This document shows, piece after piece, positions 3,368-63,439 of a DNA stretch of 64,000 bases; the stretch's first letter is position 1, and each line of letters starts with the position of its first letter. The position numbers and the translations under genes are program-made. The stretch is from a virus. The stretch is taken from IMG/VR virus record IMGVR_UViG_3300048592_000418, positions 1-64,000 of that record; one strand, written 5' to 3'. The notes under the pieces are model-generated. The model ran no database searches. It was given only the letters and a program-made list of their open reading frames with translations, and was not told the origin of the DNA.

Positions 3368-4641
3368 GTTATGTCCGCAGCGGGACAACTTACACGTATT
3401 ATATCAACGGCGTTGCGTCAGGAACCGGAACCGACAGTAGCGATTACAGTGCCGCTTCGTCCAAGATCGGCGCCGCAAGTATTTTGACGGAAATTCCGTT
3501 CGCCGGAATAATCGCACAGCCGGTCATGCTTAACCGGGCATTGTCGCCTACTGAAATGCTTTCGCTTTATGAATCGGGATCTCCGGACACTGACGATTTC
3601 CCGACAAATAAAGCGGGCACATCAATTTATACGTCCGATTTTTCTGCGGGCGTAGATTCATGGCAGACCGGGGCCGGTCGCACCGTTGCGGGAAACGTTG
3701 ACGGCATCAATGGTCAAAACGACTGGCTTTCTGCCACGAACGACTCGAACACCGTCGCTAACGCATATCGTCCTATTACATGGGGCGCGAGGCGAGTCCG
3801 CGTCGCATACCGGGTATTCATCCCGGCCGGTTCTCCAATCACGGCTATTCAAACCCGAACCGATACAGCCGCGGGACTCTCGACGCCTGTCGCTGCAAAT
3901 ACACAGTATGACATAAGCTATGAACTCACCGTCGGAACCGGAACGGTGATTCGCGTTGACGCCGATACTAGCTCCGCGGCTGGAACAGTTTTTTATATTC
4001 GTGGAATGACAATCACTCCGATTGGAGCGGTTTTCGCGCCCGATGCGGTGCAACCCGGCGCGGGATCGACTTGGTATGACATGAGCGCCGTCGCGGCGAA
4101 TCTAACAATTCCGGTCGGCGTGAGTTGGCGGATTTTGAACAAAGGACTTCCCGTCGGCGGACTGATGGATTTGCTGAACGGTCAGATCAAGTTCCCGGCA
4201 ACGCAAAACCCGTCCAGCGACGTGAACACGCTGGACGATTACGAAGAAGGCACGTTCACCGTGACGCTGCTTCCCGGAACGAGCGGAAGCATCACACTGG
4301 ATCCGGCGTATGCGACGGCTCGTTACACGAAGATCGGGCGCGTCGTTTCCATCCAAGGCGTTTGCGTCGTTCAGTCGATTTCATCGCCGGTTGGAACGCT
4401 GAAGATCGGAGGACTGCCGTTCGCGTCAGGAAACGCCGTCGGAAATTACGCAGCAATTGCGCTTCAAGCGTTGAGTTTGGAGACAACGGCGACGATGCCG
4501 GGGCAGGGCGCGATCCTTCCGAATTCGTCCGTGATCGATGTTTTCACGAGGTTTGCGGGCGGAGCTGGCGGGATCACGAGCAACGCGGCGGACATTCGCG
4601 CCGGGACGGAGATCCGTTTCTCCGGCACTTACAGCGTCTAA
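3346..4641 (+). CDS. Start-less paralogous tail-fibre C-terminal module (half LamG, CBM-like, LDDYEEGT domain)
   Basis: AGKWAHIGYVRSGTTYTYYING...NRALSPTEMLSLY parallels the 642 gene from AGK onward; NTLDDYEEGTFT...YTKIGRVV is a common fibre-tip motif; first in-frame ATG only at 3526, mid-domain. Confidence 0.75.
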   Translation, partial: AGKWAHIGYVRSGTTYTYYINGVASGTGTDSSDYSAASSKIGAASILTEIPFAGIIAQPVMLNRALSPTEMLSLYESGSPDTDDFPTNKAGTSIYTSDFSAGVDSWQTGAGRTVAGNVDGINGQNDWLSATNDSNTVANAYRPITWGARRVRVAYRVFIPAGSPITAIQTRTDTAAGLSTPVAANTQYDISYELTVGTGTVIRVDADTSSAAGTVFYIRGMTITPIGAVFAPDAVQPGAGSTWYDMSAVAANLTIPVGVSWRILNKGLPVGGLMDLLNGQIKFPATQNPSSDVNTLDDYEEGTFTVTLLPGTSGSITLDPAYATARYTKIGRVVSIQGVCVVQSISSPVGTLKIGGLPFASGNAVGNYAAIALQALSLETTATMPGQGAILPNSSVIDVFTRFAGGAGGITSNAADIRAGTEIRFSGTYSV

Positions 4642-4705
4642 GCTGTTTGACACGCTCCGCCCGTGCGCGCATCACGGGCGGAAAACTCACGAACCGAAAC
4701 CGAAC

Positions 4706-5125
4706 ATGAAATTCAGAAAAATCGAACTGCTGGAACGTCCTGTGATGGACGAAGTGAACGGCAAAGAGATCCAGATCGGGATCTTCAGCTATCGCGCGAT
4801 CCTGCGCGAAATCCTGATGACGGGGCCGGCGCCGGAGCCTGCGCGCGGATTCGCCGGCGGACTGACGACGGACGAGATCGCGCAATCGATCATGACTTAC
4901 GGCCGCGTGAAGGATGCCGTCGCGAAGAACGAAAAATTCGTCCTGCTGGACAAGGAATGTTATGACTACCTGATGCGGCGTCTCGCAACGTTCCGCTGGC
5001 AGAGCGCCAACGAAACGACGCACGAATTTTGCCGTTACATCAAAGCCGTTCCGGAAGAGGAATTCGAGGTAACGCGCAAGCCGGACCCGGTTCCCGCTCC
5101 GGCGCCGACGGCCGCGGCGAATTGA
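4706..5125 (+). CDS. Hypothetical protein
   Basis: ATG after ACGAACCGAAACCGAAC leader; TTGACA at 4647. Confidence 0.7.
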   Translation: MKFRKIELLERPVMDEVNGKEIQIGIFSYRAILREILMTGPAPEPARGFAGGLTTDEIAQSIMTYGRVKDAVAKNEKFVLLDKECYDYLMRRLATFRWQSANETTHEFCRYIKAVPEEEFEVTRKPDPVPAPAPTAAAN

Positions 5126-35386: not shown

Positions 35387-36170
35387 TCTCGCGGCGACTC
35401 GTCAGGACTGCATTTGCTTCGCGGAAGTCGGGATCGGTTCGCGATGGCTTCAGGGCGGGAAGATCCCGATCCCGGACTTGCTGACGCTTCAGCGCAGTTA
35501 TACGAAACCGGCGCCGACGATCTACGAATGCAAGGTGAGCAAACAGGACTTTGCCGGCGACGTGCGCACGGGCAAATGGATGAAGTATCTCCCGCTCTGC
35601 TGTCGCTTTTATTTCGCGCTCCCGGAAGGCATCGTGAAGAAGACGGAGATCCCGGAAGAAGCCGGGCTGATCGTGCGCGGCGTTACCGAATGGCGCGTTG
35701 TGAAGGCGCCGAAGTTTCACGTCCCGACGGAATGGGATCTCGTGAACGTGCAATCGCTTTTGCTCGCCGGCGCATGGACGCAGGAACGAGCGCGGAACCT
35801 GCGCGAGCGCTTGGTTTGGGCGGACAACGGGAAGATCGCGGAGAGCGCGAAGGCGCTCGGCTGGAACATTCGCGAGGCAATCGCGCGGCTGCGCACCGGG
35901 GAAGCGGCGTCTGCCGGCGGGCACGTGATGAACGCCGTTGCGGAAGTGCTCGGCGTCAGCGTCCCGGAGTTGGTTGGAATGTCCGAGTCATCGATCAAGC
36001 TCGCGCTCGCGAACAAGGAAAAGACGGATCTCGCGCTCGAAGCGCTGTCCGAGCTGGCGAGCGCGATCCGCTGGGGGAACACGGAAAATCTGGCGAAGTT
36101 GCTCGCGCAATTTAAGCCGCGTTATGAAATCACGAAAACGAAACGAAAAAATGGAACAGCAATCCTTTGA
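35310..36170 (+). CDS. MmcB-like PD-(D/E)XK protein
   Basis: IPDLL...IYECKVSKQDFAGD...KWMKYLPLCCRFYFALP...IPEEAGLI. Confidence 0.8.
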   Translation: MTDHRVTTKLDEPRAQVWTHRALIDDLAATRQDCICFAEVGIGSRWLQGGKIPIPDLLTLQRSYTKPAPTIYECKVSKQDFAGDVRTGKWMKYLPLCCRFYFALPEGIVKKTEIPEEAGLIVRGVTEWRVVKAPKFHVPTEWDLVNVQSLLLAGAWTQERARNLRERLVWADNGKIAESAKALGWNIREAIARLRTGEAASAGGHVMNAVAEVLGVSVPELVGMSESSIKLALANKEKTDLALEALSELASAIRWGNTENLAKLLAQFKPRYEITKTKRKNGTAIL

Positions 36171-36768
36171 TCAACTGCTTCAGGGCGCGCGCGAAATGAA
36201 GGCGATCCGCGCCGGGGAAATGGCGCCGGCGCGCGTCACCGTCATTCCGGACGATTTCACGGTGATGACGTGCGTGACGCTCTGGCAACCGTGGGCAAGT
36301 GCGCTGTTCGTGCCGCGGCTGGACGGATCCGGGCTGATGCTGAAGGTTCACGAAACGCGCGGGTGGGCGCCGAGCGCGAAGCAACTGAAGCCGGGGGACA
36401 GGCTGGCGATCAGTGCGGCGAAGACGCAGCGGGACACGGAGTCCGGCGAATACCTCGCGGATTGGTGGAACGAGCGCGTTCGGCTGACCGCGTATCGCGC
36501 CGCGTTCGCGGCCGTCGGCTGGCGCGACTGGGACGATCTTCCGTTCGGCGCGATCATCGGCTTCGGGACATTTGTAGGAGCGACGCAGACGGAAAGGCTG
36601 TTCGGGAAAATCGATCAGCATGATCGGCACTGGGGGAACTTCGGGCCGCATCGCTACGGCTGGGAGCTGCGCGACGTGAAGCGATTTCCGGCGCCGATCC
36701 CGTGCCGCGGGATGCAAACCCTGTTCCCGGTCCGGATCCCGAATGCAGCGCTCGCGGCGGCGACATGA
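36151..36768 (+). CDS. ASCH domain protein with antitoxin-like N-terminal extension
   Basis: TLWQPWASAL...KVHETRGW...LPFGAIIG...YGWEL...PIPCRGMQTLF; first ~35 aa resemble HigA2/NadS N-termini. Confidence 0.85.
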   Translation: MEQQSFDQLLQGAREMKAIRAGEMAPARVTVIPDDFTVMTCVTLWQPWASALFVPRLDGSGLMLKVHETRGWAPSAKQLKPGDRLAISAAKTQRDTESGEYLADWWNERVRLTAYRAAFAAVGWRDWDDLPFGAIIGFGTFVGATQTERLFGKIDQHDRHWGNFGPHRYGWELRDVKRFPAPIPCRGMQTLFPVRIPNAALAAAT

Positions 36769-62049: not shown

Positions 62050-63177
62050 ATGCCGACGAAACGAAACCTTCACGAAAAGCTCGCGGACAAGATCACCGCG
62101 CATCAGATCACGCTCGAACGGCTGAAGGCCGGCGAAAAGCAGAGCGTGATCGCCATGCTGCGCGATCTCGAAAAGTCGCTGATTCTCGAACTCGAAAAGT
62201 TGGACGTTACCGGCGCGGCGTCTCGCTACCATCAGGCGCGGCTCGCGAAGCTGCTTCAGTTCGCGAAGGAAACCATTCGCGGATCGTATCGAGGAATCCG
62301 TGACGATCAGCGGGAAGCGCTGCAAGGGCTGGCGAAGCTGGAAGACAGCTTCGTTCGCCGGGCCGTGAACGGGACAATCGGCGTTGATCTGATGACGGTG
62401 ACGCTTTCGGCCGAAACGCTGAAGACGCTCGCGAGTGATACGCTGATCATGAAGGCGCCGTCTGCCGAATGGTGGAGCCGGCAAGCCGGGGACACGCTTC
62501 AGCGCTTCACGGATAACATGCGCGACGGCGTTTTGCGCGGCGAACCCACCACGGAGCTTGTGCGGCGCGTGCGCGGCCGGCGGGAAAATCAATTTGCCGA
62601 CGGCATCATGCAAACGAGCTATCGGAACGCCGAAGCGCTCGTTCGGACATCCGTTCAGACCGTCGCGAATGAAGCGCGACTGGAAACCTACGCGGCGAAC
62701 GCCGACGTGATCAACGGGACGCAATGGGTTTCGACGCTGGACAGGCGCACAACGAAGATCTGCATCGCACTCGACGGGAAGGTTTGGGATCGCGAGCTGA
62801 AACCCATCGGACACAAGCACAAGTTCCCCGGTCCAACGGCGCACTGGGGATGCCGGAGCACTCAGATCCCCGTGATGAAAACGTTTCAGGAACTCGCCGG
62901 CGCGAAGGAAACGCGTTCGTTGGTGGAGCAAGCGACGGAACAGAGGAAGGACATGCTTCGCGCGTCCATGGACGGACAGGTCGCCGGCGTCCAGACGTTC
63001 GACGAATTCCTGAAGCGGAAGGATGGCAAATATCAGGATCAGCTTTTGGGTCGCGAGCGCGCGAAGCTCTGGCGCGACGGCAAGATCACTGCGGACGATC
63101 TGACGAATCAGGACAATCGGCCGCTGACCGTGAAGCAGCTTCAGAAGCTCGCCGAGCGGAGAACGGGCGGCGGATGA
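62050..63177 (+). CDS. Minor head protein (MuF / SPP1 gp7-like)
   Basis: AEALVRTSVQ, WVSTLDRRTTKICIALDG, GPTAHWGCRS. Confidence 0.92.
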   Translation: MPTKRNLHEKLADKITAHQITLERLKAGEKQSVIAMLRDLEKSLILELEKLDVTGAASRYHQARLAKLLQFAKETIRGSYRGIRDDQREALQGLAKLEDSFVRRAVNGTIGVDLMTVTLSAETLKTLASDTLIMKAPSAEWWSRQAGDTLQRFTDNMRDGVLRGEPTTELVRRVRGRRENQFADGIMQTSYRNAEALVRTSVQTVANEARLETYAANADVINGTQWVSTLDRRTTKICIALDGKVWDRELKPIGHKHKFPGPTAHWGCRSTQIPVMKTFQELAGAKETRSLVEQATEQRKDMLRASMDGQVAGVQTFDEFLKRKDGKYQDQLLGRERAKLWRDGKITADDLTNQDNRPLTVKQLQKLAERRTGGG

Positions 63178-63275
63178 ACGCGAAACGGAAACGGAAGCTC
63201 GAAGCGGCTGGCTGGAAGGTCGGCACTGCGAAAGAATTTTTGCGCAGAGCGCGCAGGAAGCGAAAGGCGAAATGA
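63174..63275 (+). CDS. 33-aa peptide resembling an XRE/HigA antitoxin N-terminus
   Basis: MNAKRKRKLEAAGWKVGTAKEFL; ATGA overlaps at both ends. Confidence 0.65.
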   Translation: MNAKRKRKLEAAGWKVGTAKEFLRRARRKRKAK

Positions 63276-63376
63276 AGGCGCCGGCGTTCGCTGTCCTGCT
63301 TCGCGCCATCGTCGCGGCCGTTATTCCGGCGCGAATCCGGACCGCTTGGCGCGTGCGTTATCTCGGCATCAGGTGA
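63272..63376 (+). CDS. 34-aa hydrophobic peptide
   Basis: MKAPAFAVLLRAIVAAVIPARIRTAWRVRYLGIR. Confidence 0.45.
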   Translation: MKAPAFAVLLRAIVAAVIPARIRTAWRVRYLGIR

Positions 63377-63439
63377 ATCGCGCCGCGGCCGGCGCAATAG
63401 GGTTGACGACTACTTCGCGGTTCGGGTTTTTTCTGTGTC

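Follow-up and report, generated by a model that had tools for sequence, protein, structure and literature searches.

The Dmd protein of phage T4 acts against RnlA/LsoA. Phage orphan antitoxins of the NADAR type are an established counter-defense against DarTG1 (PMC11825919), and a DarG-like antitoxin mimic has been described in a vibriophage (bioRxiv 10.1101/2023.12.14.571748). Here, we describe a 33-codon open reading frame (ORF) at positions 63174–63275 of the first 64 kb (positions 1–64,000; referred to as the window) of the IMG/VR virus record IMGVR_UViG_3300048592_000418. Its product, MNAKRKRKLEAAGWKVGTAKEFLRRARRKRKAK, resembles the N-terminal segment of a family of toxin-antitoxin (TA) antitoxins and may act as a minimal orphan antitoxin. 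The complete phage record is 102,004 bp long, has direct terminal repeats, and is rated 100% complete. The original prediction, made from the letters of the window, had described a stand-alone 33-aa peptide, coupled at both ends and situated directly after muF, that matches the N terminus of XRE/HigA antitoxins. The ORF, its translation, and its coupling were confirmed, and the match to the antitoxins proved to be colinear from Met1.

Gp49-like (PF05973) proteins are ribosome-dependent mRNase toxins of the RelE/ParE fold, with the toxin gene preceding the antitoxin gene (PMC11980606). Among solved structures, the HigBA complex of S. pneumoniae (PDB: 6AF3/6AF4) is the nearest relative of both partners considered here. 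In 6AF4, HigA β1 (residues 6–9) pairs with HigB β1, and α1 (residues 10–17) together with α2 (residues 20–42) forms a "crossed-scissor" interface; the toxin is contacted by W10, V13, R14, E16, L17, and F18 of α1 and by E22, S26, R29, V30, M33, and S34 of α2 (PMC7984235). In V. cholerae, a 20-residue N-terminal peptide, HigA2(3–22), is sufficient to neutralize the RelE-type toxin HigB2 (PMC5416850).

The 33-aa peptide was lengthened by seven upstream codons to give a 40-aa query for protein searches. A word-indexed search of 5.8 billion proteins matched 98–110-aa proteins with a helix-turn-helix (HTH) domain of the HTH_3, HTH_31, or HTH_37 type (PF01381/PF13560/PF13744), and the first 23 residues of these proteins aligned with the peptide without gaps and in register from Met1; the family member P0001 was identical at 17 of 17 residues. 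The motif LEAAGWKV was then scanned in one genome per prokaryote species, which gave 165 confirmed relatives from many phyla, and 80 of these loci were analyzed. A profile of 77 bacterial N termini matched the peptide over profile positions 1–23 with 40.3 bits (E = 4e-11 over 3,455 six-frame segments). The peptide carries the complete N-terminal signature, M-x3-(K/R-rich)-LEAAGWKVG-x3-EFL from Met1, and every invariant or near-invariant column of family positions 1–23 (K5, L9, E10, A11, A12, G13, W14, K15, V16, G17, F22, and L23). This resemblance is far beyond chance, and on the strength of these alignments the ORF at 63174–63275 was certainly derived from a Gp49-partnered XRE antitoxin gene.

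With the short peptide itself as the query, no family was recognized by Pfam, PHROGs, or NCBIfam (phrog_33617, E = 0.18, was disregarded), and searches of the PDB gave no match. When phmmer was run against 1.8 billion representatives, P0011 was the sole real match, and two others (P0012 and P0013) were discarded as repeat junk. The exact pattern EAAGWKVG returned two unrelated proteins from viral contigs, a 60-aa AbrB-like protein and a helicase, and both were rejected. The 60-aa viral protein (L002:7542–7724, minus strand) contains ELMEAAGWKVGD in an apparent AbrB/SpoVT-type context; therefore, the octapeptide alone is not specific to the XRE family.

Family members in bacteria are approximately 100–120 aa long. 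In 68 of the 80 bacterial loci, a same-strand gene of ~115 codons, recognized with a hidden Markov model (HMM) of the toxin subfamily, directly precedes the XRE gene. Five upstream genes were sampled, and all belonged to PF05973, with secondary matches to ParE_toxin. These data agree with the original prediction, which had placed the family beside RelE/Gp49-like toxins and expected BLAST or HMM searches to lead to the N termini of ~100-aa XRE proteins adjoining RelE-like genes. The other 12 loci (L004, L008, L009, L013, L019, L037, L044, L064, L067, L070, L072, and L081) have no recognizable Gp49-like toxin directly upstream of the XRE gene. Most of these 12 XRE genes are full length, and those of L009, L072, and L081 appear irregular; in several other bacterial loci, the toxin frames are frameshifted or truncated. 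Orphan antitoxins of the Gp49-associated XRE family therefore exist in bacteria too.

The remainder of the antitoxin gene was not detected in the phage. When the full-length P0001 protein was compared with the phage by tblastn, only residues 1–27 matched, and the full-length profile found no HTH remnant in the six frames of the complete phage, with nothing past position 25. The peptide has no Pfam match to an XRE-type HTH domain (PF01381/PF13560/PF13744). Neither PF05973 nor the subfamily toxin HMM had a match anywhere in the complete 102-kb record, and the gene directly upstream of the peptide is muF rather than a Gp49-like toxin. Because neither an HTH remnant nor a toxin is present in the complete genome, as had been predicted for both, the ORF is an orphan HTH-less fragment, i.e., an antitoxin homolog encoded by a phage that lacks the cognate toxin.

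Similar truncated modules were found in other viruses, as the original prediction had proposed to search for. The pattern WKVGxxxEFL was scanned in 2.9 million viral contigs and gave two further family matches, both without an HTH. In the first (L217:6394–7200; IMGVR_UViG_3300010883_027406, 85 kb, CheckV 17% complete), a 268-aa GT2-like ORF has MKESKQKKLDAAGWKVGSAEEFLG near its C terminus, ahead of 28 final residues that are unrelated. This module matches profile positions 1–24 with 43.8 bits, is cut at the same boundary as the window peptide, and might instead be read from an internal Met as its own 52-aa gene. In the second (L239:2647–3105; IMGVR_UViG_3300043444_000400), the first ~37 residues of a 152-aa protein are the module (profile positions 1–34, 57.7 bits), fused to a domain of ~115 aa that has no Pfam match. 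Two tandem paralogs of this domain adjoin it without the module (3874–4314 and 4299–4751) and share an LWYR motif with it; an HExxH motif in the fusion protein was rejected, as it is out of alignment with the motif of the paralogs. PF05973 had no match in either record. The 126-aa protein P0007 also has the motif and no HTH, and EFL is the last stretch shared by the window peptide, L217, and P0007, which diverge from there on. No full-length family member was among the returns of the two motif scans of viral contigs or was detected by tblastn in 50,697 GenBank phages.

The same phage appears to hold another segment of this kind, a second capture that had been proposed for position 36151 and that is supported here. 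The N-terminal extension of an ASCH-like ORF is identical at 14 of 27 positions (pairwise BLASTP E = 1e-5) to the N terminus of an HTH_3 antitoxin (L247:1474–1854), which in a Gemmatimonadales genome is encoded after a PF06296 RelE toxin. A PDB search with the 36151 segment gave no match. Judging from this alignment, the segment at 36151 appears to be another trimmed antitoxin module, derived from a TA family other than that of the 33-aa peptide.

The 23 conserved residues were mapped onto pneumococcal HigBA. The antitoxin matched 6AF3 with E = 0.0087 when searched as one sequence and with E = 4.8e-7 when searched as a profile; the toxin matched with E = 0.22. The single-sequence alignment to 6AF3 HigA places W14 of the peptide on HigA W10. 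By this comparison with a distant homolog, the peptide would keep the equivalents of β1 and α1 and lack α2, which amounts to about half of the toxin interface, and residues 1–23 may constitute a toxin-docking segment. An AlphaFold2 model of P0001 (71-sequence alignment; predicted local distance difference test score [pLDDT], 92.6) has a helix at residues 3–11, a loop through GWKVG, a short helix at 19–22, and a long helix at 27–49, followed by the HTH. In a Foldseek search with this model, alignment to solved structures was limited to the HTH core (about 70 residues), and the N terminus is therefore regarded as an add-on to that core.

The ORF lies within a run of phage genes (Table 1). Its start codon (ATG, 63174–63176) overlaps the muF stop codon (TGA, 63175–63177), and its own stop codon (TGA, 63273–63275) overlaps the start of ORF2 (ATG, 63272–63274), with the sequence ATGA at both junctions. 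ATGA-type endings occur in 43 of 114 putative phage genes, and a Shine-Dalgarno-like tetramer was found upstream of only 17 of the 114; the phage appears to depend mainly on stop/start coupling. The ATGA overlaps are thus the normal junction of the phage, and the peptide ORF is wired in like any other of its genes. A 34-nt direct repeat, D1, and the ATGAA common to both junctions were considered as evidence for an insertion mechanism and judged too weak. The peptide is not a fused MuF cargo domain: muF terminates at its own TGA, and the peptide is read from its own ATG in the -1 frame. No obvious slippery site for a -1 frameshift joining the peptide to MuF was seen by eye, and no dedicated search was run.

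Table 1. Features of the window discussed in the text
Feature	Position	Strand	Remark
Second HTH-less antitoxin-like N terminus, extension (38 aa) of ASCH-like ORF	36151..36264	+	BLASTP vs L247:1474–1854; looks like a trimmed antitoxin module
muF, SPP1 gp7-type head morphogenesis	62050..63177	+	PF04233 E 8.5e-14; phrog_241 E 7e-102
33-codon ORF (stop included), product MNAKRKRKLEAAGWKVGTAKEFLRRARRKRKAK	63174..63275	+	Antitoxin N-terminal module + basic tail
Codons 1–23, residues 1–23 of Gp49-associated XRE/HigA-like antitoxins	63174..63242	+	Putative β1 + α1 toxin-binding segment
Codons 24–33, RRARRKRKAK, basic tail	63243..63272	+	No family homology; profile match stops at position 23
ORF2, 34 codons, product MKAPAFAVLLRAIVAAVIPARIRTAWRVRYLGIR	63272..63376	+	Closes terminase-portal-muF gene run
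GC-rich perfect palindrome GCGCCGCGGCCGGCGC, then TTGACG	63380..63408	+	Between ORF2 and next gene (63440)

All long coding-like ORFs of the whole phage genome are on the plus strand. Upstream of muF, a 471-aa ORF without a Pfam match is taken to be the terminase and a DUF4055 protein is taken to be the portal protein; at the end of this run, the peptide ORF is presumably a late gene. The palindrome after ORF2 occurs once in the window, and a consensus terminator scan made no call there; it is a possible operon boundary. The MuF protein has sister proteins with 63–84% identity (P0015–P0018), and the best of the relatives found in the viral and metagenome contig scans was 45% identical, with GenBank phages at 38% or less. 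The position directly 3′ of muF is variable among 120 distant muF loci, and many muF homologs have C-terminal cargo domains such as PF03496. Four homologs of 550–650 aa (P0110, P0112, P0117, and P0128) carry C-terminal ADP-ribosyltransferase domains (PF03496 and PF01129), and cargo is therefore common at the site following the MuF core in this family of proteins.

To assess coding potential, log-odds scores of codon usage were trained on 17 long phage genes, and 33-codon windows served for comparison. Codons 1–23 of the ORF are mildly coding-like (+0.21 per codon). ORF2 scored 8.4, which is coding-like and reached by only 0.05% of off-frame windows; no homolog of ORF2 was found in the 120 distant muF loci. 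The DNA of the basic tail is purine-rich and holds the only Shine-Dalgarno-like motifs (AAGG/AGGA) ahead of ORF2. ORF2 itself scores as coding, and the tail is probably an accidental read-out into the ribosome-binding region of ORF2.

The best reading of these sequences, which we hold tentatively, is that the ORF encodes a minimal orphan antitoxin and that its docking partner is a Gp49-type toxin from the host or a prophage. A bacterial type II antitoxin gene was captured and trimmed to its native start codon and first 23 residues, with loss of the whole HTH DNA-binding and dimerization domain. For the residues that remain, a strand and a short helix are predicted, which would contact the toxin in the manner of pneumococcal HigBA. 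Ribosomes re-initiating after muF would make the peptide, and its target would be a Gp49-type toxin encoded by the host or by a prophage resident in it; as a stable, repressor-less orphan antitoxin, the peptide would blunt TA-mediated abortive infection. Such a function, which the original prediction had proposed as a strategy of antitoxin mimicry against host TA immunity, is plausible because the HigA2 20-residue peptide neutralizes HigB2 and because the module recurs without an HTH in other viruses. In its favor, the module is intact from its native Met with all invariant positions kept, an HTH-less module is found in two unrelated viral contigs, a second HTH-less antitoxin N terminus occurs in the same phage, the ATGA coupling fits the gene grammar of the phage, and the peptide sits in the variable slot after muF.

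Several observations weigh against a functional antitoxin and, in part, favor other explanations. In 6AF4, the other half of the interface is carried by α2, which is not in the peptide, and over the N terminus 6AF3 is matched only weakly: the best-scoring stretch of the profile begins at residue 26, and only the envelope reaches further toward the N terminus. The late structural operon is an awkward location for counter-defense unless the peptide is packaged, which is conceivable with MuF; known anti-TA factors act early. The whole ORF has an ambiguous codon score of -2.0 (in-frame windows, 14.3 ± 4.8; off-frame, about -19), and the ten tail codons, with -0.69 per codon, resemble non-coding sequence and are probably the accidental read-out described above. 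The antitoxin motif is absent from all 120 distant muF loci, and no homolog of the peptide follows muF in any of them. At most 49 of 69 nt are identical between the phage segment and any of the 80 bacterial genes, and no recent donor was found among them. Against all 80, third-codon positions agree in no more than about half of the residues held in common, which leaves no basis for dating the capture or naming its donor. The coding scores, the coincidence of the tail with the purine-rich region ahead of ORF2, and the lack of a homolog after muF in the distant loci suit a non-functional relic, which is nearly as likely as the minimal orphan antitoxin: an antitoxin gene or a whole TA pair would have landed in the slot after muF and then been almost entirely deleted. 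The first 69 nt would survive because they carry the ATGA junction, with ribosomes merely bridging muF to ORF2. For the stop to fall on the next ATGA, the frame merely has to be right, with a probability of roughly 1 in 3, and the 33-aa product was absent from a short-protein search of the protein collection. However, a relic sits poorly with the preservation of the native Met and all invariant family positions without a frameshift or stop, with independent truncation at the same module boundary in L217 and P0007, with the second trimmed antitoxin N terminus in the genome, and with the tendency of a compact 102-kb phage with overlapping genes to purge useless DNA.

Peptides copying HigA α1 or α2 displaced HigA, disrupted the HigBA complex, and released active HigB, with restored RNase activity and cell killing (PMC7984235), which adds to the case against neutralization and raises an opposite role for a phage peptide that corresponds to β1 and α1 only. 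It could occupy the antitoxin docking site or perturb the TA complex without blocking catalysis, thereby freeing or activating a Gp49-type mRNase for late host shut-off or to harm cells that carry the TA system of a rival prophage. Late timing suits shut-off better than defense-blocking, but an activated abortive-infection toxin would normally hurt the phage, and VcHigA2(3–22) shows that short N-terminal peptides can neutralize (PMC5416850); we consider such a competitor very unlikely. It is, if anything, still less probable that the product is a generic, highly basic small head- or DNA-associated peptide whose likeness to antitoxins is historical only, serving, for example, in charge neutralization of packaged DNA. 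The product is strongly basic (15 K/R and 2 D/E among 33 residues, pI about 12, about 3.9 kDa), its ORF is co-transcribed with terminase, portal, and muF, and an Atlas feature search returned clusters of unannotated 40–45-aa proteins (score 0.94, weak recognition). However, it is the non-basic LEAAGWKVGTAKEFL core that is conserved and not the charge, the tail looks fortuitous, and relatives among the 120 distant loci have no such peptide after muF.

If the minimal orphan antitoxin reading is right and the peptide binds a toxin, then it would be about the smallest natural anti-TA factor known, and phages would be able to pare an antitoxin down to a 23-residue docking segment. A sequence rule would follow for recognizing anti-defense genes among tiny unannotated phage ORFs, namely N- or C-terminal antitoxin segments without a DNA-binding domain, and such peptides would be natural leads for turning RelE/HigB-type toxins off, or on. 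More speculatively, the first ~23 residues of Gp49-partnered antitoxins might be a portable, self-sufficient docking module that viruses have repeatedly excised and used either on its own, as in L217 and the present 33-aa ORF, or joined to other domains, as in L239 and, judging by analogy, in the ASCH-like ORF at 36151. In the present phage, the highly basic peptide would be synthesized together with the head proteins and enter the particle next to MuF and the DNA; on injection, it would meet the host toxin at the very onset of the next infection. We regard this extended scenario as unlikely. Even as a relic, the ORF would show that a gene was captured and then eroded at the variable site behind muF.

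The closest known counterpart of the peptide is the N terminus of the Gp49-partnered XRE antitoxins, represented structurally by S. pneumoniae HigBA: residues 1–23 are colinear from Met1, all invariant N-terminal positions of the family are kept, and the corresponding region of HigA (β1 and α1) contacts the toxin in 6AF4. Unlike HigA and the family as a whole, the phage peptide has no α2, HTH, dimerization element, or upstream toxin, and it is 33 aa long rather than about 100–120 aa, with a foreign basic tail and a place in a late phage operon. V. cholerae HigA2 likewise has a short N-terminal antitoxin segment ahead of its HTH domain, but the two have no detectable sequence relation (HigA2 is absent among the PDB matches), the toxin is a different one, and the binding geometry differs, with a long helix then a strand in HigA2 and a strand then a short helix in the pneumococcal-type segment; moreover, the HigA2 peptide is a laboratory construct and not a natural gene. 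MuF-linked cargo and polymorphic toxin modules (P0110 and P0112 with PF03496) occupy the same variable position immediately 3′ of the muF core, whereas the peptide is a separate, unfused -1-frame ORF derived from an antitoxin rather than a toxin. Like the phage orphan antitoxins and mimics (NADAR, DarG-like, and Dmd), which are proposed or shown to neutralize host TA defense, the peptide is an antitoxin homolog in a phage without its toxin. Those factors comprise whole domains or enzymes, from about 60 to several hundred residues in length, that are expressed early and have demonstrated activity, whereas the peptide is a 23-residue putative docking segment in a late operon. Phage orphan antitoxins are already known; a naturally trimmed 23-residue docking segment would be a new form of them.

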